64,000 nucleotides of DNA from Coleofasciculus sp. B1-GNL1-01 (GTDB lineage Bacteria > Cyanobacteriota > Cyanobacteriia > Cyanobacteriales > Coleofasciculaceae). The translations under genes were made by a program, and so were the position numbers. The notes under the pieces were generated by a model. That model worked only from the letters and a program-made list of their open reading frames with translations, was not told the origin of the DNA and made no database searches. Position 1 is the first letter of the stretch; every line of letters begins with the position of its first letter. Positions 26,426 through 37,893 of this stretch are shown piece by piece. The DNA lies in the NCBI GenBank assembly GCA_040220235.1, contig JAVJTO010000102.1; one strand, 5' to 3'.

Positions 26426-27028
26426 AACAATTCCTTGGTGCGTCAACAGTAGCAATTATTGTCTATAGAAGAAATAGTAGCGCTATCCAATTTGTTGAAA
26501 CACCCTCCTAAGACTGAGATTGGATAAAAGTTTGGGGGGAGCATGTCAGTTTTGCCCGCAGGATTATTGTAGGTTGGGTTTCGACTTCTGATAGTAAGCC
26601 TTTAGGCTATGTACTCACACGCATCGAACCATTTCACCCTCATCCCCTAACCCCTTCTCCCATCGAGGGAGAAGGGGAACTATAACTGCCTTCCCACAGC
26701 CGATGGTGAGAATTGAGATGTAACAGATGAAAACATGCGATCGCGTTATCGTAAAACCCAATCTGTAGGGGCGGGTTTAGGGACTAACCTATTAAAACAT
26801 AACCGATAACTTTCGTACAAAACCCGCCCTTCCAAAGTTTGCGATCGCGTCTTTCCCGTCTGTTGTTATAATCTTTTTGTTCACCGTTTCTTTGGCATTA
26901 GATTTTCTTTGACAAAATGACTTGAATAGGCTGAAGCCCTTACTACAAAACTCGCCCGACCAAAGTTTGCGATCGCGTCTTCCCTGTCTGTTGTCTTAAT
27001 ATATAGGATGGGTCAGCATTTGAGCGGC

Positions 27029-30000
27029 TCATGAATTTGGCGCATCTGGTGATGGATTGGGTGGGTAAAGTGATAGCAGTTGCTTTAAGGCTTCTGGAAT
27101 GTTAATTGCTGTTTCTAATCCTTGCACGTTTTGCCATTGAGTATATTCATCCCAGGTAATACCGTCTAGATTAGCCTTGCTGAAGTTAGCCTTGCTGAAG
27201 TTAGCCTCGCTGAGGTTGGCGTCGCTGAGGTCGGCTAAGCTAAGGTTGGCACTGCTGAGGTCAGCGTTGCTGAGGTCGGCATTGGTCAGGTTTGCATAGC
27301 TAAGGTCGGCATTGCTGAGATCTGTGTAGCTAAGATCTCCATAGTGGAGATTGGCACAACTGAGGTTGGCTGTATTGAGGTTGGCTGTATTGAGGTTAAC
27401 CAAGCTGAAATTAGCGTTACTGAGATTAGCACTACCGAGGTCAGCTTCGCCGAGTTGAGCGTTGATGAGTTGAGCGTTGATGAGATTGGCGTTAGTGAGG
27501 TTTGCATCAAGCAGGCATGAGTCGTAAAGGTCTGCGTTAGTGAGATTACCCTCGATGAGGTCTGCATGGCAGAGATTAGCTTCACTGAGATTAGCCCCAA
27601 TGATGTTTGTGCCGCTGAGGTTAGCGAACTCAAGGTTGGCATCACTGAGGTCTGCGCCACTGAGGTCTGCGCCACTGAGGTCTGCCCTAACAAAGTTGAC
27701 ACCTCTAAGATTGACCTGCTTAAGATTGACGTTACTAAAAAATAAGTTAACCGTATTTTCAAAAGTGTTAAGCTTAACGCTATTGCTATAACTAATAATG
27801 CGAAGCAATCGAGTTGGCTCAAAACTATCACTATCTGTATTACCACAAGGATTAAAGTTAATCTTATCCTTTAGTTCATCTTTTCTCTGAGCGTAACGAT
27901 TCAATACTAACAGCAGAATCATTACATTTAGCCCAGCATAGATATCCACCTCTCGCAATCCCATCAAACTACCATGCTTTCGCAATTGCAGCATCTTTTT
28001 CTGAGGTAGATTACTCGTAGGTTCTGCATTAATAAAGTCCCCATTACACCAATCCAAGTAGAATTCTTCCAAACGCTGGAATAATTGCACAAATTCTTCG
28101 TTACTGACATCAAGCAACGCCATCACATACTCGACAATTTCCCAAGTCAGCCCCCCATAACCTAGTAAATCGTAAACTTCCTCGGCTAACTGATCCTGGC
28201 TAACCAGAAAACCGCTACGTCTGCGGCGCGGTTCAACCCACTCTTTCAAACTTTCAACTAACCGCTGAGCGCATAAAAACTCAGCAAAACTTTTATGAAC
28301 AAACTCCACCGCTCCTTCCGTGGCGTCAGCAGCAGAAGCGGGTCGTAAATAAAACGCTGCTAGCGCATTTCTCAACGGATTATCGCCAATGCGTTCTCGT
28401 GCTTTTTCTAACAATTTACTGGCTTGATCATCTCCCTTGAGACGTTCCTCAATCATGCGAATTGAAGTCCACTCTCCACCCGATTGAGTGACACATAACC
28501 CCGCTTCAGTGAGAATGCGCCGCAAGTCATCTGTCTCTTGTTCAGTAAGTTCCAAATTCAGGTCTTGAGAACGCTGCTGAGTCAGTACCCAATCTAAAGC
28601 TTTTTGATAAATCAACACTTTGGCACCAGCGCGGCTGGTTCCCTCAAACATTTCTAAGGATAGTTCCCCATCCCGATGCATCGCAGCTAAAAGGTAAAGT
28701 AATAGCGGTTCTCGCGCCAATTCTTTCACCCGTTCCGGGCAGTTTCCAGCCTGTAAAAAATCCCAAAATACGTTAGCTTTATCCTCACCCACTAAATTTG
28801 ACCACTTATCCAACCATTGCTGCTGGATTTGGTCATTCATGAGGGCAATTTCTACCCGTTCTAAATTGCGAGGTAGAAATTGTTCAATTCCATGTAAAGC
28901 TAATTCTCGACCCGTGACTAAAAACCGATGTCCCAGTTCTGAATTTTGCTGACAACTGGTTTGAAAATTCCCCACCTGTTTGAGAAACTTTTCAATCCCG
29001 CCTGTAGTTCTTCCCTCCATTCGCAATTCATCAAACCCATCCAGGACGAATAAAAATCGGGTATTGCGGTCAGTTAACCAGCCGTCATCGCTCTTAACAA
29101 AATCTGCCTTAACCGCAGCGCGGAGGGTATTTTCGATATTGTTTTCAAAGGCATCAATATCCCGGAGTCGAATCAGAATCGGTGTCCAGATGGGATGAAG
29201 ATGTTCTCGCACCCAATTGGCAAACATCCGACAAAAGACACTTTTTCCTCGTCCAGGTCCCGCTTGAATGAATAGGACTTTACCATTTTTATCCGGGTTC
29301 GTAAGCTGGTTTTTCGCCCACTGTTCTAAATTAACCGGGTCTGCTTTTTTATCAACTTTGCCATTTTTATCCACTAAATGGGCTTCCAGTGGCACATAGA
29401 TATCGGGAAGCGTGAAATTTTCACCCAATACTTTCCACTGGGTTTGTAATAGAGGATTACTGGTATGAGGAGATATCTGTTCCGTTAAATAGGATTCAAT
29501 ACTGCCATATTTCTGGCTGGCTTGGATTTCCCGCGCGGCGGTACGGGTTAATTGTAGGGGTTGGGTAATCGTCTCTGACTCGTAGGAAAGTAGCTGATCA
29601 ATTATCGGATAGATTCCCCAGGCTACCCATCCGGTTACAATAGGAATATTGTACTGATTTAATCCCGCTTGGTTTAAGTATTCTGATAATTGTTGATTTA
29701 AAGCCTGTCCTAACCGGGATTCAGGAAAATAGGTTAAAGCGTCTTCAATTAATTTCTGGTCAAGTTGAAGTTCTCCAAGCTGATCCAATTGTGATTTAGC
29801 CGCTTGATTCGATATCCCAGAACCGATTTTGTGCTGTAGCCAATCATTCTCACGCACCAATTTATCGAAACGTTCCAGATACGCTAAAGGAAACGCGATC
29901 GCAGCCCACTCTTCTAAGCGTGTCTTTCCCTTAACCTTACCACGATACAGGTTCACCCCTTTGCGAGTAAGCCCCACAAACGACAACCCCGCCGGGATCA

Positions 30001-30166
30001 CCGCCACAGGTGCGGCTGGCGTTCCCAATAAACCTAACGCGATCGCTAATTCTAACCCCGCCTTGGAAACCTCTGCGCCAGTCTCGGCAATTTCTCCCGG
30101 TTTCCCTAAATCCCGGATATCAGTATTGAGAAGCTGCCAAACCTGCTTAAATTTGTTCACCGTCAC
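27029..30166 (-). CDS. NACHT NTPase with C-terminal pentapeptide repeats
   Basis: Walker A AGPGRGKS, FVLDGFDEL, PLLLYLLA, EFVHKSFAEFL; long A(D/N)LxX pentapeptide run. Confidence 0.9.
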   Translation of the reverse strand: MTVNKFKQVWQLLNTDIRDLGKPGEIAETGAEVSKAGLELAIALGLLGTPAAPVAVIPAGLSFVGLTRKGVNLYRGKVKGKTRLEEWAAIAFPLAYLERFDKLVRENDWLQHKIGSGISNQAAKSQLDQLGELQLDQKLIEDALTYFPESRLGQALNQQLSEYLNQAGLNQYNIPIVTGWVAWGIYPIIDQLLSYESETITQPLQLTRTAAREIQASQKYGSIESYLTEQISPHTSNPLLQTQWKVLGENFTLPDIYVPLEAHLVDKNGKVDKKADPVNLEQWAKNQLTNPDKNGKVLFIQAGPGRGKSVFCRMFANWVREHLHPIWTPILIRLRDIDAFENNIENTLRAAVKADFVKSDDGWLTDRNTRFLFVLDGFDELRMEGRTTGGIEKFLKQVGNFQTSCQQNSELGHRFLVTGRELALHGIEQFLPRNLERVEIALMNDQIQQQWLDKWSNLVGEDKANVFWDFLQAGNCPERVKELAREPLLLYLLAAMHRDGELSLEMFEGTSRAGAKVLIYQKALDWVLTQQRSQDLNLELTEQETDDLRRILTEAGLCVTQSGGEWTSIRMIEERLKGDDQASKLLEKARERIGDNPLRNALAAFYLRPASAADATEGAVEFVHKSFAEFLCAQRLVESLKEWVEPRRRRSGFLVSQDQLAEEVYDLLGYGGLTWEIVEYVMALLDVSNEEFVQLFQRLEEFYLDWCNGDFINAEPTSNLPQKKMLQLRKHGSLMGLREVDIYAGLNVMILLLVLNRYAQRKDELKDKINFNPCGNTDSDSFEPTRLLRIISYSNSVKLNTFENTVNLFFSNVNLKQVNLRGVNFVRADLSGADLSGADLSDANLEFANLSGTNIIGANLSEANLCHADLIEGNLTNADLYDSCLLDANLTNANLINAQLINAQLGEADLGSANLSNANFSLVNLNTANLNTANLSCANLHYGDLSYTDLSNADLSYANLTNADLSNADLSSANLSLADLSDANLSEANFSKANFSKANLDGITWDEYTQWQNVQGLETAINIPEALKQLLSLYPPNPSPDAPNS

Positions 30167-30193
30167 TCAGGCATTAGACTCTCCCTTACACGA

Positions 30194-30299
30194 TACAGCA
30201 GTTTGCTCTGCTATGCGGTACATTGTCGATCCCCCTCGCATCCCCCTTAAAAAGGGGGACTTTGATCTACTGTACTTTATTACAGCGCAAAGAGCTGTA
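30194..30299. mobile_element. Putative ~106-bp MITE with TA ends
   Basis: Imperfect 29-bp terminal inverted repeats TACAGCAGTTTGCTCTGCTATGCGGTACA / TGTACTTTATTACAGCGCAAAGAGCTGTA enclosing a CCCCC-TTAAAAA-GGGGG hairpin. Confidence 0.6.
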
Positions 30300-30372
30300 A
30301 CCTGAATTCACCCACGTTCGTAGTTAGGCTTGTAGCCAACTTGAACGCCAGGAAATAAATTTCTTATCGTTA

Positions 30373-30520
30373 AGCTGTAATGCATTTAAATTGGGTATTA
30401 GTAGCGAGCAAGATGCTCAATGTAGCGAGCAAGATGCAAAGCCTGCGGCATGGCTTCGCTAAACGCACTACGGCAAGGATCTCGCAATTATTGACATTAT
30501 GGTTTAAATGCCGAACAGCT
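30373..30520. mobile_element. MITE (AGCTGT...ACAGCT ends, TA flanks), copy 1
   Basis: 18-bp imperfect TIR AGCTGTnnnGCATTTAAA, TA on both sides; close inverted copy at 53895-54018. Confidence 0.85.
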
Positions 30521-30620
30521 TAAGCTCAAGTAAGCTAAAGCTTACTAGGTAAATCTTACAACCCGTTTTAACGGGTTTAAGCTTTTAGCCGGAACTTTAG
30601 TTCCAGGCTTAATGGGCTAT

Positions 30621-31202
30621 CTATTCCTGGATTTCGCTAGTATAATGCAGCTTAATAAAACTATCAAAGGAATACCAAGCTAAAACATACCAAGGAATCG
30701 CTTCTATCATCAATCCCTTAACAATTAATTGTCTTATCGCTAAAACACTAAAACCCAAAGGAATCAAAAATCTTATATCAACGATCCCATCGGTTGCCCG
30801 TCTCACGCGACGGTTAAAATCAGTGACAGCATAAGTTACACTAGCCGCCGCATCAGATTGACCGTTAGCCGAACGTCTCGGTTGTTGTTCAGGAAGCTGG
30901 CTCAACGTCACCCCTAAATCCTGCAAAATCGCCCAAACTCCCTCGAAATTAATGTAATCTTGGGCGTAAAAAATAGTAATACTACCACTGTGGATATTAC
31001 CTCGTACCCGATAAATCTCTAGACGTTCATTTAACAAGTTGATCAGCGGTTCAATATCCTCAGATTGGCGATACTCCGGAGCCACCCGCAATCGCACTCG
31101 CCCTGGTGTTTGACTGATCAGTTCAGCATAAATAGGTGAAACACCTATTTCGGGCGTCGTTTCCTTTAGTTTTGGCATTTTAGAATTATTAGTTATGATC
31201 AT
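30621..31202 (-). CDS. HMA2-domain membrane protein (FezC-like architecture)
   Basis: Arg-rich LISQTPGRVRLRV, GSITIFY, no CxxC; C-terminal hydrophobic LIPLGFSVLAIRQL...IPWYVLAWYSF. Confidence 0.72.
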   Translation of the reverse strand: MIITNNSKMPKLKETTPEIGVSPIYAELISQTPGRVRLRVAPEYRQSEDIEPLINLLNERLEIYRVRGNIHSGSITIFYAQDYINFEGVWAILQDLGVTLSQLPEQQPRRSANGQSDAAASVTYAVTDFNRRVRRATDGIVDIRFLIPLGFSVLAIRQLIVKGLMIEAIPWYVLAWYSFDSFIKLHYTSEIQE

Positions 31203-31238
31203 AATTAATTCTCAATTATGAATTGTGCCTCATGAATT

Positions 31239-31266
31239 GTAGAGACGTGCCATGGCACGTCTCTAC
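31239..31266. repeat. Perfect 28-bp REP-like palindrome GTAGAGACGTGCCATGGCACGTCTCTAC
   Basis: Self-complementary; variants at ~8996, ~23622, ~37491 and ~61299. Confidence 0.92.
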
Positions 31267-31280
31267 ACAGTTAATGAAAA

Positions 31281-31568
31281 TTAACCTTCACTATTCGGCG
31301 CGGGTTCCAATTCGGCTTGGCTTTTTTGTTCAGCCAATTCTGCCTTCGCTTCTGCCACGATGTCTTCAAAAACTTCACCAGATTCTGAGAGCATTCCTTT
31401 ACCTTTTTCGTAAAAGACAATTCCACCTTTGACCATCGCCTTGGCAACAGGTTTCCCCACCTTGACAGCAGCCGGAATCAGCAACGGCGCAGCAACAACG
31501 GCACCAATACCCGCCACAACACCGGGAACCCCCAGATCTTCAAACAGATCAGTTATTTTAAACGCCAT
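31281..31568 (-). CDS. DUF5132-like small GxxxG membrane protein (paralog 2)
   Basis: GVPGVVAGIGAVVAAP, KPVAKAMVKGGIVFYEK, acidic helix EVFEDIVAEAKAEL; upstream AGGAGG RBS. Confidence 0.8.
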   Translation of the reverse strand: MAFKITDLFEDLGVPGVVAGIGAVVAAPLLIPAAVKVGKPVAKAMVKGGIVFYEKGKGMLSESGEVFEDIVAEAKAELAEQKSQAELEPAPNSEG

Positions 31569-31655
31569 AATGTACCTCCTTCATTCAAAAAACTTTTCCG
31601 GAACTGTTATTCTAGCAACCTACCTAGGAAAATGCATGATCCTAGGGATACAGGG

Positions 31656-31952
31656 TTAGTTCGTTTCCGGATGATTAGACACTTTGACAATGCTATTCTC
31701 GTCTAATTCAGTCGCCAGTTCTGCCTTACTCTGGGCGACTAAATCGCCAAAGGCTTCGCCAGCTTCTGCCATGACAATTTTGCTCTTTTCATAGAACACA
31801 ATGCCACCTTTAATCGCAGCTTTGGCAACAGGTTTGCCTGCTTTCGCCAGCGCCGGACCAAAAATCGGTGCCAGAACAACCGCACCAACACCGATAAGAA
31901 CACCGGGAATACCAATGTCTTCGACTAAATCTTCGAGATCAAATAAACTCAT
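31656..31952 (-). CDS. DUF5132-like small GxxxG membrane protein (paralog 1)
   Basis: GIPGVLIGVGAVVLAP, KPVAKAAIKGGIVFYEK, EAFGDLVAQSKAEL; upstream GGAGG RBS. Confidence 0.8.
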   Translation of the reverse strand: MSLFDLEDLVEDIGIPGVLIGVGAVVLAPIFGPALAKAGKPVAKAAIKGGIVFYEKSKIVMAEAGEAFGDLVAQSKAELATELDENSIVKVSNHPETN

Positions 31953-32010
31953 AAAACACCTCCAAACGTAGATTGAAAACTTTTAGGTTGAGATAACAGG
32001 GAAACCTGGT

Positions 32011-32150
32011 TGTAGGGGCGGGTTTTACCGATAACGTTCTGTCGTGTCTCTAACTTAACTAAACCCGCCCTTCTACGGAATCAGGGGAGATGGGGCGGGT
32101 TTAGTCACATCCGGGTGACAACATCAGATAATAATGAAACCCGCCCCTAC
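32011..32150. repeat. Two REP-like inverted-repeat elements (GGGGCGGGTTT...AAACCCGCCC)
   Basis: Arms at ~32012/32061-32070 and ~32092/32138-32150. Confidence 0.85.
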
Positions 32151-32167
32151 AGTCGGAAAAACTCCAA

Positions 32168-34444
32168 TTAATCGCTAGCAACTTCAACCTCAATCGCCGC
32201 TTTATCTCCCTTGAGTGCAGGGCGTAATCCGTTGACACCCGCAATGACACTAGAGCCATTGTTAATTAAGGTGGCTGTCATTGGATTTAATCCCACCGTC
32301 GCCGCGATCGCTAAACCCGATAAATTAGGTACAGCGACAATATTGGTATTCTGGCGGATAATCTCTTTAGCATTCCGGGCGATCGCAATGGCTTCGACTA
32401 AACCCTGCAAGTTATTCTGCATCAACACCACATCGGCGGTTTCGCGGGCAATATCAGACCCATCCCTGAAGGATACCGATACATCAGCATAAGCTAACGC
32501 GGCGGAATCATTCAGTCCATCACCAACAAACGCCACCGTTTTCCCCGCTTCATGTAACTGCTGCACCACTTCCGCTTTGCGTTGGGGGAAGGCTTCGGCG
32601 TGGGTATGACTGGGAGGTATATTTAATTGAGCCGCCACAGTCGCTGCCCGTTGACAATTGTCCCCCGTTAGGATATGAATCTCTGCCCCAATTTCGTCCC
32701 GCAACATGGCAATCACTTCGGCACTTTCTGGGCGCAAGGGATCGGTATATTGCAATATACCCAGCAGTCTGCCATTACTTGCCACATAAATTGTTGGATA
32801 TCCGGTTGTCTTCACGTCAGGATGGGCGGTATAGAATGACTCTAGGTCAATTCCCTCTTTCACCAAGAAGCGTTCGCTCCCCACTAACACCGTCTGTCCT
32901 TCAATTTGCGCCTGAATCCCTAAACCGACTTGGTAATCCCACTCACCGCGCTGGGGTATAATCACCTCCTGATAATTGGCGTAACGCATTACCGCTTCTG
33001 CAACCGGGTGGGTAATCCGTTGTTCCGCCGCTGCTGCAAGTCGCAGCACATCTAATTCAGAAATGGCGGGATCAGCGGTTTTAATCCCAATCATTGCCAC
33101 ATCGCCCTGTGTCAATGTCCCCGTCTTATCAAAAACGATCGCATCAACTCGCGCCAATTGCTCTAACGCCCGCCCACTCCGCAGTAGAATCCCCTGACGG
33201 GCTGCACTTAACATCGCCGCCATGACGGTAGTCGGTACCGATACCCGAATCCCAGTAGCAAAGTCAATGGTTAAAATCGACGCCGCCCTCGCCGCATTCC
33301 GAGTTAGAGCAAAAATAGCCCCCCCTAATAATAGAGTGGGCAGTACCATGCGATCGGCAATTTTCGCCGCATAGTTTTCCACACGGGTATCATGAACCGG
33401 GGCATCTTGTAGTAACTTCAAGGTTCGCCCTGCCAGCGTATCCGCACCAATGCGTTCAGCTAGAATATACAGTTGTCCTTCCCGTACCAACGTAGACGCA
33501 TAAACGCTATCGCCCTCACTTCGTACCACGGGCATAGCTTCACCCGTGAGTTTTTGTTCATCAATCAGGGCTTTGCCTTGCAGAATCTGCCCATCCACGG
33601 GAATCTGATTCCCCGGATAGACAATCACGGTATCCTCTGGCTGTACCTGTTCAATCGGAATTTGCTGTTTTTCGCCATTCCGTTCCACCCAAACAACTTG
33701 CGCTAAGGAACTGAGCAAGTCTAAGGTTTGACTGTGAGACGAACGCGCCGTGCGTTCTCGAATTGCCTCACCCAGTTCAATTAGCCCCAACATACTACAG
33801 GAGGTGAGGAAATGACGTTGAGCGGTAATAATCGTAATCGCCGTTAGATCCAGAAAGTCCACATTGAGACGACGTTCATCTTTAATACTTTCCATCGCCC
33901 GTCGAGCCACAGGTATTGTTGCTAGTGCGATCGTCCCGCCCACAATTAAGGGATGGAACGATAACCCCAATGGACCACTAATCAGAGAAATTAGTGTGGC
34001 TAACGTCGGTAATTTTAATCGAGACCAATTTCCGGGTTCCGGTGAGTTCTCTACCTGAGTCGTATTCTCTGGAATCGTTAGCGCTGCATTGGTAGCAAGC
34101 TGAATCAGTTTCCCTAACCGGGAACGCATCTGGCTATCCGGTTCACTGGGTAGATAGCGAATTACCACCGATGCGGCGGCTGGTTTTAACCGCACCGATG
34201 TAACCTGGGGTTCTGCTGCCAAAAGCCTTTGCAGCCGTTGAGCATAGTTAGAATCATGAGCAATGCGCGGAATCCGAAACCGCACTCGTCCAGGTGTGGA
34301 GTGAACCACTCGATAGGTTACCTGAAACTGTCGTGTTTTTGGCTTGGTTCGCTCAATCACAGTTGGCGATTTACGTTCCATGGCGGCTGTCTGTTTCTGG
34401 GAAACATTGCCAGATGTCAAAAGCACTTGCTTCATTTTCACCAC
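32168..34444 (-). CDS. Heavy-metal P1B-type ATPase with N-terminal HMA2 domain and non-canonical membrane metal site (P1B-6/FezB-like)
   Basis: VVHSTPGRVRFRIP; LTGEAMP; DKTGTLT; HP motif (RITHP); TGDN; GDGLND; IDFATGIRVSVP where CPC normally sits; INNGSS in the last helix. Confidence 0.9.
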   Translation of the reverse strand: MVKMKQVLLTSGNVSQKQTAAMERKSPTVIERTKPKTRQFQVTYRVVHSTPGRVRFRIPRIAHDSNYAQRLQRLLAAEPQVTSVRLKPAAASVVIRYLPSEPDSQMRSRLGKLIQLATNAALTIPENTTQVENSPEPGNWSRLKLPTLATLISLISGPLGLSFHPLIVGGTIALATIPVARRAMESIKDERRLNVDFLDLTAITIITAQRHFLTSCSMLGLIELGEAIRERTARSSHSQTLDLLSSLAQVVWVERNGEKQQIPIEQVQPEDTVIVYPGNQIPVDGQILQGKALIDEQKLTGEAMPVVRSEGDSVYASTLVREGQLYILAERIGADTLAGRTLKLLQDAPVHDTRVENYAAKIADRMVLPTLLLGGAIFALTRNAARAASILTIDFATGIRVSVPTTVMAAMLSAARQGILLRSGRALEQLARVDAIVFDKTGTLTQGDVAMIGIKTADPAISELDVLRLAAAAEQRITHPVAEAVMRYANYQEVIIPQRGEWDYQVGLGIQAQIEGQTVLVGSERFLVKEGIDLESFYTAHPDVKTTGYPTIYVASNGRLLGILQYTDPLRPESAEVIAMLRDEIGAEIHILTGDNCQRAATVAAQLNIPPSHTHAEAFPQRKAEVVQQLHEAGKTVAFVGDGLNDSAALAYADVSVSFRDGSDIARETADVVLMQNNLQGLVEAIAIARNAKEIIRQNTNIVAVPNLSGLAIAATVGLNPMTATLINNGSSVIAGVNGLRPALKGDKAAIEVEVASD

Positions 34445-34545
34445 CCTCTCTTTCTGTCAATACAATTTATTTCGGTGAGCAATATCGGGAGCGATCGCTG
34501 TCGTCATCAAAGTTAAGACTCACCCTTCCTGAACTCAAACTGGGA

Positions 34546-35868
34546 TTAAACGCCTACGATGGGCATTTTTGCCATCAATCCGAGAAGGGTGGAAAGCGCT
34601 GCTGACTTAAATTCCAACCAAGGACTCACTGAGGTTGCGATCGCGGCTTGAGCGTTTTCCAGGGGTTCTGGTTTATCAGCCACAGAATCATCGGTGTTGG
34701 TTGGTTGTACATCCTGATCAACAGAACTCTCCCCAGCCTCCTCACTCCCCTGATCCTCTTCTTCTACCTGCACCGGAGGAGTCAACGAATTCGCCTCGGC
34801 TGAACTTGTCTCCGGTGGCGACAAATCCGGCTCGGCCATCTCCTCAGCTTCCCCACGCCTGGGTTCCTCTGGAAGGACAGGTTGAGTCAAGTTATCCGTT
34901 TTCTCTTCAACGTTATCGGTATAACCCGCTCCGACAACTGGGTTCTCAGATGTGTCATGACTCGTCTCTACATACTCCGCTCCTCTGCTCCTCCACTCCC
35001 CGGCTCCTCTGCTCCCCGGCTCCCTGGAGTCAGGATCAGCAGCGATTTGAATCAGACTAATGAAATGTAACCCAGCTTCTGCTTCGGAAACCTGCATCGG
35101 GTTGTAGGTGATCACCACCGATGCGACGGTGCTGTTGCAGCGCATCTGAGTAATCCAGTCATCTTTTTTAACTAAGGCTTGCAATCGGCGCAGATAGGCT
35201 GAATCTTCGGTAACTTTAGGAACACGAAAACGCATCCGTCCAGGAACTGTATGAACTAAGCCATAGACAACCGCTGAATCGGTATTGAATGCGACTGTTG
35301 GCGGCTTATTATTTTGCTCATAAGGTGTAGCATTTGCAATAACCTTTCCGTCTAAATTGACATTATTTTCGTCCGCCTTGTCACCTTCCTTCTGTCCTGT
35401 GTCTTCTAACCAATCCAAATTCTGCATAATCTGGCGAACGACATTCGCTGTCAGTAAATAGACCAGAATTGACCGCCATCCTTGCAGTCCTAGTTGCCTT
35501 GTGGTTAATAGTCCAAGTAATAAGGGAATAAAGGATATAAGCTGAGTCCCTGATTTTTTCCAAGCCTCTGCGTCTAACGGTTCTTGACTTTGAGGCTGTT
35601 CAATTTCGCCAAGTCCTAAATTCCCCAGAATTTGAAATAGTTGAGCTAGAGATAACTGATTCGTATCAAAGGTAATGAGTAAACTTCCAATTTGCTCATT
35701 GGTTCGTATCTCTCGCACGCCGACCCGCTTTCGCAGCAGGGGCGTAACCGCTCTCAATACGGTTCCGGGTTCCTCTCCTAAGACTCGGAGTCTTAGACGA
35801 CCTGGAACAACATGTAAAATTTCGACCTCCCGCTCTGGGCGAGGTGAAACCACACCAACCATTGGCAT
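34546..35868 (-). CDS. Double HMA2-domain membrane protein with acidic low-complexity tail
   Basis: Two Arg-rich motifs (LHVVPGRLRLRV, VHTVPGRMRFRVP) separated by hydrophobic segments; tail contains translated repeat elements. Confidence 0.72.
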   Translation of the reverse strand: MPMVGVVSPRPEREVEILHVVPGRLRLRVLGEEPGTVLRAVTPLLRKRVGVREIRTNEQIGSLLITFDTNQLSLAQLFQILGNLGLGEIEQPQSQEPLDAEAWKKSGTQLISFIPLLLGLLTTRQLGLQGWRSILVYLLTANVVRQIMQNLDWLEDTGQKEGDKADENNVNLDGKVIANATPYEQNNKPPTVAFNTDSAVVYGLVHTVPGRMRFRVPKVTEDSAYLRRLQALVKKDDWITQMRCNSTVASVVITYNPMQVSEAEAGLHFISLIQIAADPDSREPGSRGAGEWRSRGAEYVETSHDTSENPVVGAGYTDNVEEKTDNLTQPVLPEEPRRGEAEEMAEPDLSPPETSSAEANSLTPPVQVEEEDQGSEEAGESSVDQDVQPTNTDDSVADKPEPLENAQAAIATSVSPWLEFKSAALSTLLGLMAKMPIVGV

Positions 35869-36655
35869 TGACCCTCGTAACAGTAGTGTGGAGTTTCTCT
35901 GGTTAAGAACAGGTTAACCTCCATATCTAAGCATACACCCTATCTGTAATTTTTTATCTGAAAAAAATATTATGAATCTGAGAGCGTCTCTTAACCTAAT
36001 CTTATACTCTATGTATAGAGGAATACATCTATTGGATGATCCCTTGAGATTTTAGAAGATAGAAGCTTAGCTAATTCGCCATACTGCTCGGATCAGCTCT
36101 CGTTGAATGTTTTCTAGACATTCAAACGTCTTTACAAGATCCCCCTGCTTCCCTTAACCAAACAGTAGTGGGCTGATACGTAAGTTGAGTATTAACTGAT
36201 TATTTGTAGTCTGGGATACATTATCTATCGAACTGTTCCCCGTTCCCTACCCTCACCACCACACTGATTCGGGGTGTGGGGAATAGCAGCCAAGGGATAA
36301 AGGGGGTGATCAAGGCGGATTGGATAACAAACTGGATAGTACAGCAGCATTTAGGCGTCAAGACATTACTGGCATTGGGATGCCCATAAGTTAGATAGTG
36401 TCTTGACCAAAACTTCATAAACTTCTGACAATTTCTTTATGGAAACTTTACAACAAGCAAGACAAAAGTTTATAAAATAAAGTTAAATTAAATTTAACTC
36501 TGTCTAAAAAATATTGTATTCAGATTGTTTTCAGAAAGAGGGTTGACAAGATTTAATTTCCGCAAGAATTAATAGATAGGAGAGAAATTGCCTTCTTAGC
36601 AAAGATATCCAAGACAAGAGATAACCCAATATCAAACAATCGCATTTGGAGCAAG

Positions 36656-37417
36656 TTGATGAATTACATTTTTGGCACAGTTGGTGATGATTGGCTAGAA
36701 GGCACATCCAGTGATGATGTCATTTATGGAGGAGAAGGAACCAATAGGATTATAGCCAGATATGGCAATAATGAAATTTATGGCGGTTCGGCTGCTGATT
36801 GGATTACCTCTGGAGATGGCGATGACACGATTTATGCCAACGAAGGGGAAAATATAATTGATGCTGGAGGCGGCGATAACCTGATTTATGGCGGTTCAGC
36901 TGCTGATTGGATTACCTCTGGAGATGGAAATGACACGATTTATGCCAACGAAGGGGAAAATATAATTGATGCTGGAGGTGGCGATAATCTAATTTATGGC
37001 GGTTCGGCTGCTGATACAATTACCACGGGATCGGGTGATGATATTATTTACGCGGGTGAAGGGGTAAACACGATTAATACAGGAGATGGAAATGATATTA
37101 TTTACAGTGGTTCAGGTGATGATGTAATTAATGCAGGTAGAGGTCAAAATCAAATCTGGCTGGGCGGTGGACAGGATACCATTAGCTTAGAAATGTGGGG
37201 ATCTAGTGAGATTAATAACTTTAACCCCTATCAAGACCAAATTGACTTTGGACTCTCCGATCTACGCGGCGTAGTTTTGATCGGACAAGGCAATGACACA
37301 ATGATCGGTTTAGGTAATTATGCGATTATGGCAACGTTGCATAATGTTGATGTTCAGACTGTAGCGGCTCATTCCACTGATATTTTTGGCGCAGAACTTA
37401 CTGTGTTTTCCAGTTAA
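36656..37417 (+). CDS. RTX/hemolysin-type Ca2+-binding repeat protein
   Basis: Many Gly/Asp-rich nonapeptides (GDGDDTIYA, GGGDNLIYG); internal 108-bp (36-aa) direct repeats starting 36776, 36884 and 36992. Confidence 0.85.
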   Translation: MMNYIFGTVGDDWLEGTSSDDVIYGGEGTNRIIARYGNNEIYGGSAADWITSGDGDDTIYANEGENIIDAGGGDNLIYGGSAADWITSGDGNDTIYANEGENIIDAGGGDNLIYGGSAADTITTGSGDDIIYAGEGVNTINTGDGNDIIYSGSGDDVINAGRGQNQIWLGGGQDTISLEMWGSSEINNFNPYQDQIDFGLSDLRGVVLIGQGNDTMIGLGNYAIMATLHNVDVQTVAAHSTDIFGAELTVFSS

Positions 37418-37893
37418 GCCTGTCCAGCGATCATCGGTCATCATACCAAATCCGGGTTCCGGGTTGACGACCTCCTTTTATGCCAACCTTGTAGAGACGT
37501 TGCGTGCAACGTCTCTATAGGTATATTTTGATACCTACAAAAATTAGGATATGAATCGGACATCTCGCGATCGCGCCCAATGACGCTAAGTGGCACTCAA
37601 GAAACCCAAGCGTGAGAGATCGCTGGGTGGAAGTAGGTTGCATGTACACTCTTCATTAAGATTAGCGCATTAGGCTTCTAAATAAACCGTTGCCGCTTAA
37701 ATTTACCTTTTTTAATATACTAAAGCTAATAAATTTACCAAAGCTTAATTCTACAATTAAAAATTAATTAATTGACTGATAAACTGAAGATTATCAGCAA
37801 TTTTCATGATAAGGCTAGACAAAATGTAAACGAAATGTTATAAATATTAACTAAGCGCAATACATAGGATAGTAAATACTCAATATTCACGGG

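Follow-up and report, generated by a model that had tools for sequence, protein, structure and literature searches.

A conserved cyanobacterial gene cluster encoding a FezB-related P1B-type ATPase with ferrosome- and PacL-like partner proteins

Background

The described systems closest to the gene cluster reported here, which lies in a stretch of 64,000 nucleotides (hereafter the window) of contig JAVJTO010000102.1 of Coleofasciculus sp. B1-GNL1-01 (assembly GCA_040220235.1), are the ferrosome (fez) clusters, the PacL systems of Mycobacterium tuberculosis and the neighbourhood of ccyA in Microcystis PCC 7806. According to Grant and Komeili (bioRxiv 10.1101/2020.01.10.902569), the FezB pump is defined by the motifs D[Y/F]SCA and HNxxT, and its arginine-rich motif is present in FezB-related pumps as well; ferrosomes contain ferrous phosphate (bioRxiv 10.64898/2026.06.16.732667). 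PacL (DUF1490) is reported to cluster P1B-6-like pumps in membrane patches through transmembrane glycines and to bind the N-terminal domains of the pumps through Glu/Ala repeats, and DUF6110 proteins, reported beside P1B-6 pumps, are described as related to PacL (bioRxiv 10.1101/2021.10.01.462712; PMC13043812). In Microcystis PCC 7806, two DUF5132 genes and two CoBaHMA genes flank ccyA and the Ca/H exchanger gene cax (bioRxiv 10.1101/2024.07.07.602159); CoBaHMA domains are HMA folds that lack CxxC and have basic residues on strands 1 and 2 plus an extra strand beta0 (PMC8890360), and are equated with Pfam HMA_2 (bioRxiv 10.1101/2024.07.07.602159). In the literature consulted on ferrosomes, CoBaHMA, DUF5132, cyanobacterial P1B-6 pumps, the locus tags all2002-all2006 and inclusions of Coleofasciculus, the function of the cluster is not described; its pumps may already be listed in Supplementary Table 1 of Grant ('related P1B-ATPases') or in Gaschignard 2024. 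The cluster is a real, conserved and apparently undescribed variant of the fez/PacL kind.

Results and Discussion

Gene content and partner proteins

Five co-oriented open reading frames (ORFs) encoding proteins of 440, 758, 98, 95 and 193 aa occupy positions 30621-35868 of the window on the minus strand (Table 1). The initial annotation, which took them for a ferrosome-like (fez-type) cluster with a P1B-ATPase, was right about these genes, and the synteny that it named as a check is present, gene order being kept across cyanobacterial families. What stands of its interpretation is the fez-type parts list, the conserved order and a pump nearer to FezB than to Cu/Zn/Co pumps; FezB membership and an iron role are not supported. 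The DFATG/NNGSS site of the pump and the Pho box ahead of the first gene were not noted there. The motif PGR[VLM]R[LF]R, already noted in three of the proteins, occurs exactly four times (residues 22 and 209 of the 440-aa protein, residue 51 of the ATPase, as PGRVRFR, and residue 33 of the 193-aa protein), each time inside a Pfam HMA_2 domain, which in the ATPase lacks CxxC. The arginine-rich motif is thus part of the HMA_2/CoBaHMA domain, which FezB-motif pumps and their neighbours carry as well.

The two small proteins, correctly recognized at the outset as GxxxG paralogues, belong to DUF5132 and are 53% identical; GxxxG lies at residues 16/17 in a hydrophobic segment, and the C-terminal helix is acidic. 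The cyanobacterial DUF5132 profile matches 18 small proteins encoded beside FezB-motif pumps (E 1e-3 to 4e-7); Pfam assigns several of these proteins to DUF6110 or DUF1490, and hhalign pairs DUF5132 with DUF6110-type proteins at 87% (E 3.8e-6). On this profile evidence, DUF5132 and the DUF6110 proteins next to FezB-motif pumps are homologues. Through this distant homologue, the cluster has what PacL systems have, a protein with transmembrane glycines and a Glu/Ala helix encoded in an operon with the pump.

The model of the 193-aa protein predicts an HMA fold with a leading strand (residues 24-32), followed by two C-terminal membrane helices, and over residues 22-101 it matches HMA folds and KipI (2kwa) with Z 7.0-7.6 and rmsd 2.3-2.8; together with the HMA_2 matches, the leading strand identifies the CoBaHMA family. 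The protein is FezC-like in layout, but its hairpin is by sequence unrelated to the His-bearing FezC-type hairpin (hhalign probability 0.1% against seven of these), and a search of the ESM Atlas with the hairpin returned HMA_2 clusters alone, under 0.9. The 440-aa protein consists of a CoBaHMA domain, a hydrophobic Gly-containing segment (~104-146), a second CoBaHMA domain, an acidic variable linker (33 D/E versus 8 K/R in residues 280-412) and a C-terminal amphipathic helix that is conserved in an alignment of 17 homologues. The cluster therefore contains the small GxxxG proteins and the arginine-rich FezC/FezD-type partners (the 440-aa and 193-aa proteins) of a fez cluster, with a membrane part that differs from FezC-type hairpins; of the expected kinship with FezA and FezC, the DUF5132-DUF6110 homology holds and that of the hairpin does not. 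Prediction of a complex between the CoBaHMA domain of the pump (residues 36-125) and the 95-aa DUF5132 protein scored 0.00.

A pump in a clade sister to FezB

The ATPase is an intact P1B pump by TIGR01525 (493 bits; cut-off 346), with a membrane domain of the six-helix type and a model (pLDDT 89) whose best Foldseek matches are ZntA/CopA; its nearest named relatives are in Coleofasciculus genomes (94-98% identity). Its transmembrane motifs are DFATG at residues 394-398 and NNGSS at 728-732, so that neither D[Y/F]SCA nor HNxxT is present and neither Cys nor His occupies the FezB positions. An N-terminal arginine-rich motif without CxxC is present, but is not specific to FezB. The predicted ion site comprises D394, T397, N707, N728, N729 and S731/S732, plus M218, E223 and E226.

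Trees were built with two sets of references: the best 150 of 72,895 phmmer matches, of which pumps of 600-1100 aa with the phosphorylation motif were kept, and FezB-motif metagenome loci (80 of 113 matched stretches), of which pumps of at least 620 aa were kept, the FezB reference set thus being motif-bearing database proteins rather than named FezB proteins. In IQ-TREE (72 chosen rows), the Shimodaira-Hasegawa-like approximate likelihood ratio test (SH-aLRT) supports the FezB-motif clade at 98, a DxxTG clade that holds the cyanobacterial pumps at 99, and the two as sisters at 100 versus CPC-type pumps; FastTree (216 sequences, from 220 aligned after removal of three non-pumps and one gappy row) agrees. 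The approximately unbiased (AU) test rejects the cyanobacterial pumps and FezB as one clade (p=0.0004). Because both signature motifs fail and the joint clade is rejected, the pump is, as far as its sequence tells, a member of a clade sister to FezB and outside FezB/P1B-6; the proposed phylogenetic check found it nearer to FezB than to Cu/Zn/Co pumps, yet beside the FezB-motif clade and not inside it. The DxxTG clade extends past cyanobacteria: of ten members looked up, two carry the names Deltaproteobacteria and Anaerolineae.

Three pump subtypes and the iron context

Among 301 cyanobacterial genomes, with at most three pump candidates scored per genome, the pump family was found in 39, all of them among the 49 with DUF5132. 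Motifs and tree together separate three subtypes: type A, to which the window pump belongs (DF[AC]TG/NNGS, Ile222); type H (DFVTG/HNG, with a second His at 222), which forms one clade (support 100) nested in type A (93); and type G (D[FL]GTG/NNG.A). All 21 aligned pumps of the window subtype have D394, T397, N707, N728, N729, M218 and Ile at 222, whereas type H has His at 728 (17/17) and at 222 (94%). FezB-motif pumps have Cys397 and His728 (18/18) and share D394 and N707/N729 with the window pump.

Within 9 kb (Pfam-corrected counts; some contigs stop early), feoA/feoB accompanies 1/18 type A, 14/20 type H and 0/12 type G pumps, whereas the hairpin protein is encoded near 16/18, 1/20 (a locus holding both subtypes) and 0/12, respectively. 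A Fur-like box scoring at least 15 of 19 against the published cyanobacterial consensus (PMC7546424) lies upstream of 8/18 type H and 0/20 type A pumps (shuffles at most 2 and 1); the window scores 13/19. The same genome encodes a lone type H pump (DFVTG/HNGSA; contig C40:30170-32485, locus L287:7171-9486) with a Fur-like box of 16/19, one of 35 such strand matches genome-wide, 188 nt upstream. Since the window cluster has no Feo linkage, Fur-like box or Cys/His ligands and a separate iron-type paralogue exists, an iron role finds no support, and the idea of a ferrosome in a phototroph is a better match for the paralogues of type H than for the window cluster; of the pumps in this genome, the one on C40 is the better candidate for iron transport.

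Several loci show the partner proteins in other company. In family f5, DUF5132 and a CoBaHMA-hairpin protein are encoded at the deformylase locus with no P1B pump there (L261-L266, L284, L275); some of these pump-less loci hold a degenerate Pho box, and several of the genomes have a P2A-type pump operon (see below) elsewhere. At L269 (G249:C84), a locus that contains no pump, the genes after feoA-feoB-ferritin-feoC encode a CoBaHMA protein, a double-CoBaHMA protein and two DUF5132 proteins. Near pumps, CoBaHMA is also found fused to PAP2 phosphatase or diacylglycerol kinase (L059:13174-14325, L062:15725-16858, L084:15343-16656, L280:8043-9554).

Table 1. Features of the cluster and its surroundings in the window
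Feature	Coordinates	Strand	Evidence or remark
440-aa protein, scaffold candidate	34546..35868	-	Pfam HMA_2 x2; conservation across 17 homologues; hydropathy
758-aa P1B-type ATPase, N-terminal CoBaHMA domain	32168..34444	-	Pfam HMA_2 + E1-E2 + HAD; TIGR01525; model; trees
98-aa DUF5132 protein, GxxxG helix and acidic Glu/Ala helix, PacL/DUF6110-like	31656..31952	-	Pfam
95-aa DUF5132 paralogue	31281..31568	-	Pfam
193-aa CoBaHMA protein with Trp/Tyr-rich membrane hairpin (IPWYVLAWYxFDSF)	30621..31202	-	Pfam HMA_2; model
Tandem SphR/Pho-type box, GTTAACCT-gtt-CTTAACCA	35900..35918	-	ends 31 nt ahead of the ATG of the first gene
CTTAACC-type units	35984-36010 and 36147-36162	+	face the divergent 253-aa gene
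Gene of 253-aa protein, divergent	36656-37417		RTX-type Ca-binding repeats
Nested inverted repeats, GGGGCGGGTTT/AAACCCGCCCC	32000-32151		between pump and first DUF5132 gene
MITE-like element, 154 bp	30370-30523		21-nt terminal inverted repeats; between cluster and NACHT gene

A Pho-type box ahead of the cluster

Su et al. (2007, PMC1906773) give the SphR unit as CTTAACCT with a 3-bp linker and require at least three repeats. The window has two clear repeats with that linker ahead of the first gene (Table 1), and relatives have two or three. Upstream regions were scored with the degenerate form YTTAAYYW, which we take to represent the unit, at a cut-off of 15 of 16 or better. Such a box precedes 14/23 type A clusters (shuffles at most 1), 0/18 type H and 0/8 type G pumps; four further type A regions score 13-14 at the same position. 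In 15/17 loci examined, 25-36 nt separate the end of the last repeat from the ATG, and a box at this position occurs in families f1, f3, f5, f8 and f16. Sites scoring 15 or more number 141 in this genome and are too common alone to prove binding.

The triple box of three of the loci (L058, L060, L064) is identical to the one that Su et al. (PMC1906773) predicted for all2006 and Ava_5066, whose position fits the first cluster gene by gene order; unlike here, their list has these as hypothetical proteins and links neither to a pump or a fez-like cluster. The gene order of family f5 is protease, deformylase, cluster, which all2008 fits as a serine protease (table of PMC4365693). By box sequence and gene order, the cluster thus appears to be present in Anabaena PCC 7120 from all2006 onward, and direct testing is therefore possible in this model organism. 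There, all2003, the DUF5132 gene by gene order only, is 4.0-fold up 12 h after nitrogen step-down (PMC4365693).

A -10 element (TAnnnT) lies downstream of the box in 3/17 loci and upstream, at -12 to -20, in 10/17, a weak signal in AT-rich DNA; the pstS-like gene of this genome, unlike most of these loci, has a downstream -10. Because the box lies so near the start that an activated promoter would not leave enough space for the ribosome sites present in several loci, and because the downstream -10 is mostly missing, its placement suggests repression. In RNA-seq of phosphate-starved Nodularia CCY9414 (PMC9846622), the four genes listed in the syntenic cluster (hypothetical, P-type ATPase, DUF5132, hypothetical) change by -0.26, -0.39, -0.56 and -0.48 log2 on day 7 and by +0.14, -0.50, -1.94 and -0.90 on day 14, while PstS rises by +7.1/+4.3; the induction by phosphate starvation expected of SphR targets is thus not seen in this other organism. 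A supplement on phosphate re-feeding in Nostoc (PMC7564538) has no rows for the cluster genes.

CTTAACC-type units also face the divergent gene on the other side (Table 1), whose product is encoded beside the cluster in Coleofasciculus loci only.

Proposed function: transport of a hard divalent cation by a scaffolded pump

Since the pump lacks iron-type residues and the genes stand behind a signal of phosphate status rather than of iron, another metal ion together with phosphate is the more probable business of the cluster. With a probability of roughly 0.4, we propose that the pump, held on a scaffold, transports a hard divalent cation (Ca/Mg/Mn) and, as long as phosphate suffices, loads it into a cation-phosphate store or a membrane patch. 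By analogy with PacL-CtpC/CtpG, the GxxxG helices would let the DUF5132 proteins oligomerize in the membrane, and contacts of the acidic helices of these proteins with basic patches would keep the two CoBaHMA proteins and the pump in one assembly; the hairpin and the amphipathic helices may shape a membrane patch or small vesicle. The pump, whose ATPase motifs are intact, would spend ATP on moving the cation through its oxygen-donor site, and the cation would be co-deposited with phosphate, as in the Fe(II)-phosphate ferrosomes. SphR would bind the conserved box just before the ribosome site and most likely damp expression when phosphate is scarce. Calcium or magnesium is the leading, if tentative, choice of cation, and among the hard cations manganese comes second; over all ions, iron ranks slightly ahead of manganese or some other ion. 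The chemistry of the site, the Feo/Fur contrast between subtypes, the position of the Pho box, the distribution of the hairpin, the slight fall in Nodularia and the ferrous phosphate of ferrosomes are the grounds for this proposal.

Other findings weigh against it. Nine of the 23 type A upstream regions fall below the Pho cut-off, and the cyanobacterial P2A operons with the same hairpin have the box in 1/9 only; because the strict box is no commoner in the genome (11) than in a reversed control (23), it is only the conserved position that speaks for the box. Many loci are related (family f5), so that subtype and box counts are not independent. The Nodularia cluster, which follows a protease and a deformylase gene, was matched by gene order and annotation only; significance was called for DUF5132 on day 14 alone, the first gene, behind the expected box, was flat (-0.26/+0.14), and DUF5132 rose by 1.13 in ageing phosphate-replete cultures, where Pho genes rose too (PMC9846622), all of which disfavours simple repression. 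The conserved Met218 would equally fit Mn2+ or Fe2+, and genes for Ca, Mg or polyphosphate do not recur next to the cluster.

A bolder version, which we consider doubtful, makes the ferrosome kit one with interchangeable pumps: the window subtype would build a membrane-bound, hitherto undescribed organelle for storing Ca/Mg-phosphate, switched by SphR to fill only at plentiful phosphate, and the Fur/Feo-linked His-type pump would derive from it by regaining iron-type ligands. The sequences point to an uncharacterized family of P1B pumps with an oxygen-only ion site, and to a ferrosome/PacL accessory kit reused under different regulators, Fur with the His-type pumps and SphR with the window type. 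If a cation-phosphate store is indeed formed, cyanobacteria relevant to mats and blooms would have a new compartment for storing phosphate, which would bear on luxury phosphate uptake.

Alternative functions

The alternative that survives best, although unlikely, is an effluxosome-like platform in the cytoplasmic or thylakoid membrane, on which the small proteins cluster and stabilize a pump that exports Mn2+, Ca2+ or Mg2+ to the periplasm or lumen without any organelle, possibly supplying secreted enzymes. PacL, to which DUF6110 is related and whose layout DUF5132 shares, does cluster P1B-6-like pumps, and its gene, like those of DUF5132 here, lies with that of an arginine-rich P1B-6-like pump (CtpC, CtpG or CtpV); the pump-less remnants that retain DUF5132 and the hairpin protein would also fit scaffolds that act on several pumps. 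However, PacL systems as described are two-gene systems without CoBaHMA hairpin or double-domain partners, and both of these, which make the window cluster more fez-like, are present here; CtpC has CPC and HN where the window pump has neither, and PacL1 carries a His-rich metal motif that the DUF5132 proteins (0 and 1 His) lack. Supply of alkaline phosphatase would moreover call for induction under phosphate starvation, which the Nodularia data (PMC9846622) do not contain.

Next, and also improbable, comes the initial proposal in modified form, a true equivalent of the ferrosome: an oxygenic phototroph would store Fe(II)-phosphate in a vesicle, and phosphate would tune this store because its mineral consumes phosphate. 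The sister relationship of the pumps (SH-aLRT 100), the shared accessory families and compact arrangement (arginine-rich HMA_2 domains on pump and partners, small GxxxG proteins; bioRxiv 10.1101/2020.01.10.902569), the common D394 and N707/N729, the ferrous phosphate of the ferrosome mineral (bioRxiv 10.64898/2026.06.16.732667) and one type A locus that comes after feoB (L069) all agree with it. In contrast to described fez clusters, the window cluster has DFATG/NNGSS in place of both FezB signatures, no Cys/His ligands, an unrelated hairpin, a Pho box and an oxygenic host; Feo and Fur signals are rare or absent in type A (1/18 and 0/20), and the Fur-boxed paralogue on C40 suits an iron role better.

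Far less likely is a lipid-handling module, in which CoBaHMA domains bind anionic lipids, as has been hypothesized for them, and the complex retains or moves phospholipid (phosphatidylglycerol) according to phosphate supply, the substrate of the pump not being a stored metal. CoBaHMA-PAP2 genes adjoin two of the clusters (L059, L062), CoBaHMA-diacylglycerol-kinase fusions adjoin related pumps, and dihydroxyacetone-kinase genes follow the cluster in several family f5 loci, but such neighbours are sporadic, and the pump retains the P1B fold and what appears to be a compact, polar site of the kind usual in cation transporters.

Links to calcium are found outside the cluster. At seven loci, one of them on contig C81 of this genome, the hairpin is fused to DUF5132 and encoded ahead of CoBaHMA-bearing P2A (PEGL) Ca2+-type pumps and a second metK; the DUF5132-hairpin fusion, CoBaHMA P2A ATPase and second metK form a conserved operon (C81:59665-65044, which is L286; also L254-L259, L267, L273). 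Strong calcyanin-like matches occur in 6/301 genomes, and type G pumps are present in five of the six; loci of the type G subtype include L047, L078, L080, L082, L084, L088-L090, L093 and L103, and at L082 the pump gene has a Ca/H-exchanger-like gene and degenerate paralogues of the pump as neighbours. The least likely alternative, that the cluster belongs to the intracellular amorphous calcium carbonate (iACC, calcyanin) machinery, would draw on these five genomes and on the biomineral-tied ccyA cluster of Microcystis PCC 7806 with its two DUF5132 and two CoBaHMA genes (bioRxiv 10.1101/2024.07.07.602159; PMC8890360), but the window cluster has a P1B pump in place of ccyA and cax, this genome has no match at E<=1e-5 to one calcyanin-like query (which divergent types could escape), and no strong calcyanin-positive genome has the window subtype among the loci examined.

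Flanking and intergenic features

The downstream NACHT/pentapeptide gene was considered as a cluster member and rejected, because other genes stand at that place in L001 and L003. In four metatranscriptome runs (positions 26500-37600), contigs span cluster and flanks alike, with no sign of expression or co-transcription, and a scan for sigma-70 promoters and terminators found no excess over shuffles (14 versus 9.8 +/- 3.3; 5 versus 5.9). The MITE-like element beyond the last gene (Table 1) has 151 matches of at least 100 nt in the genome. The nested inverted repeats behind the pump gene, short pieces of which recur genome-wide (225 matches), could stabilize the downstream portion of the transcript.

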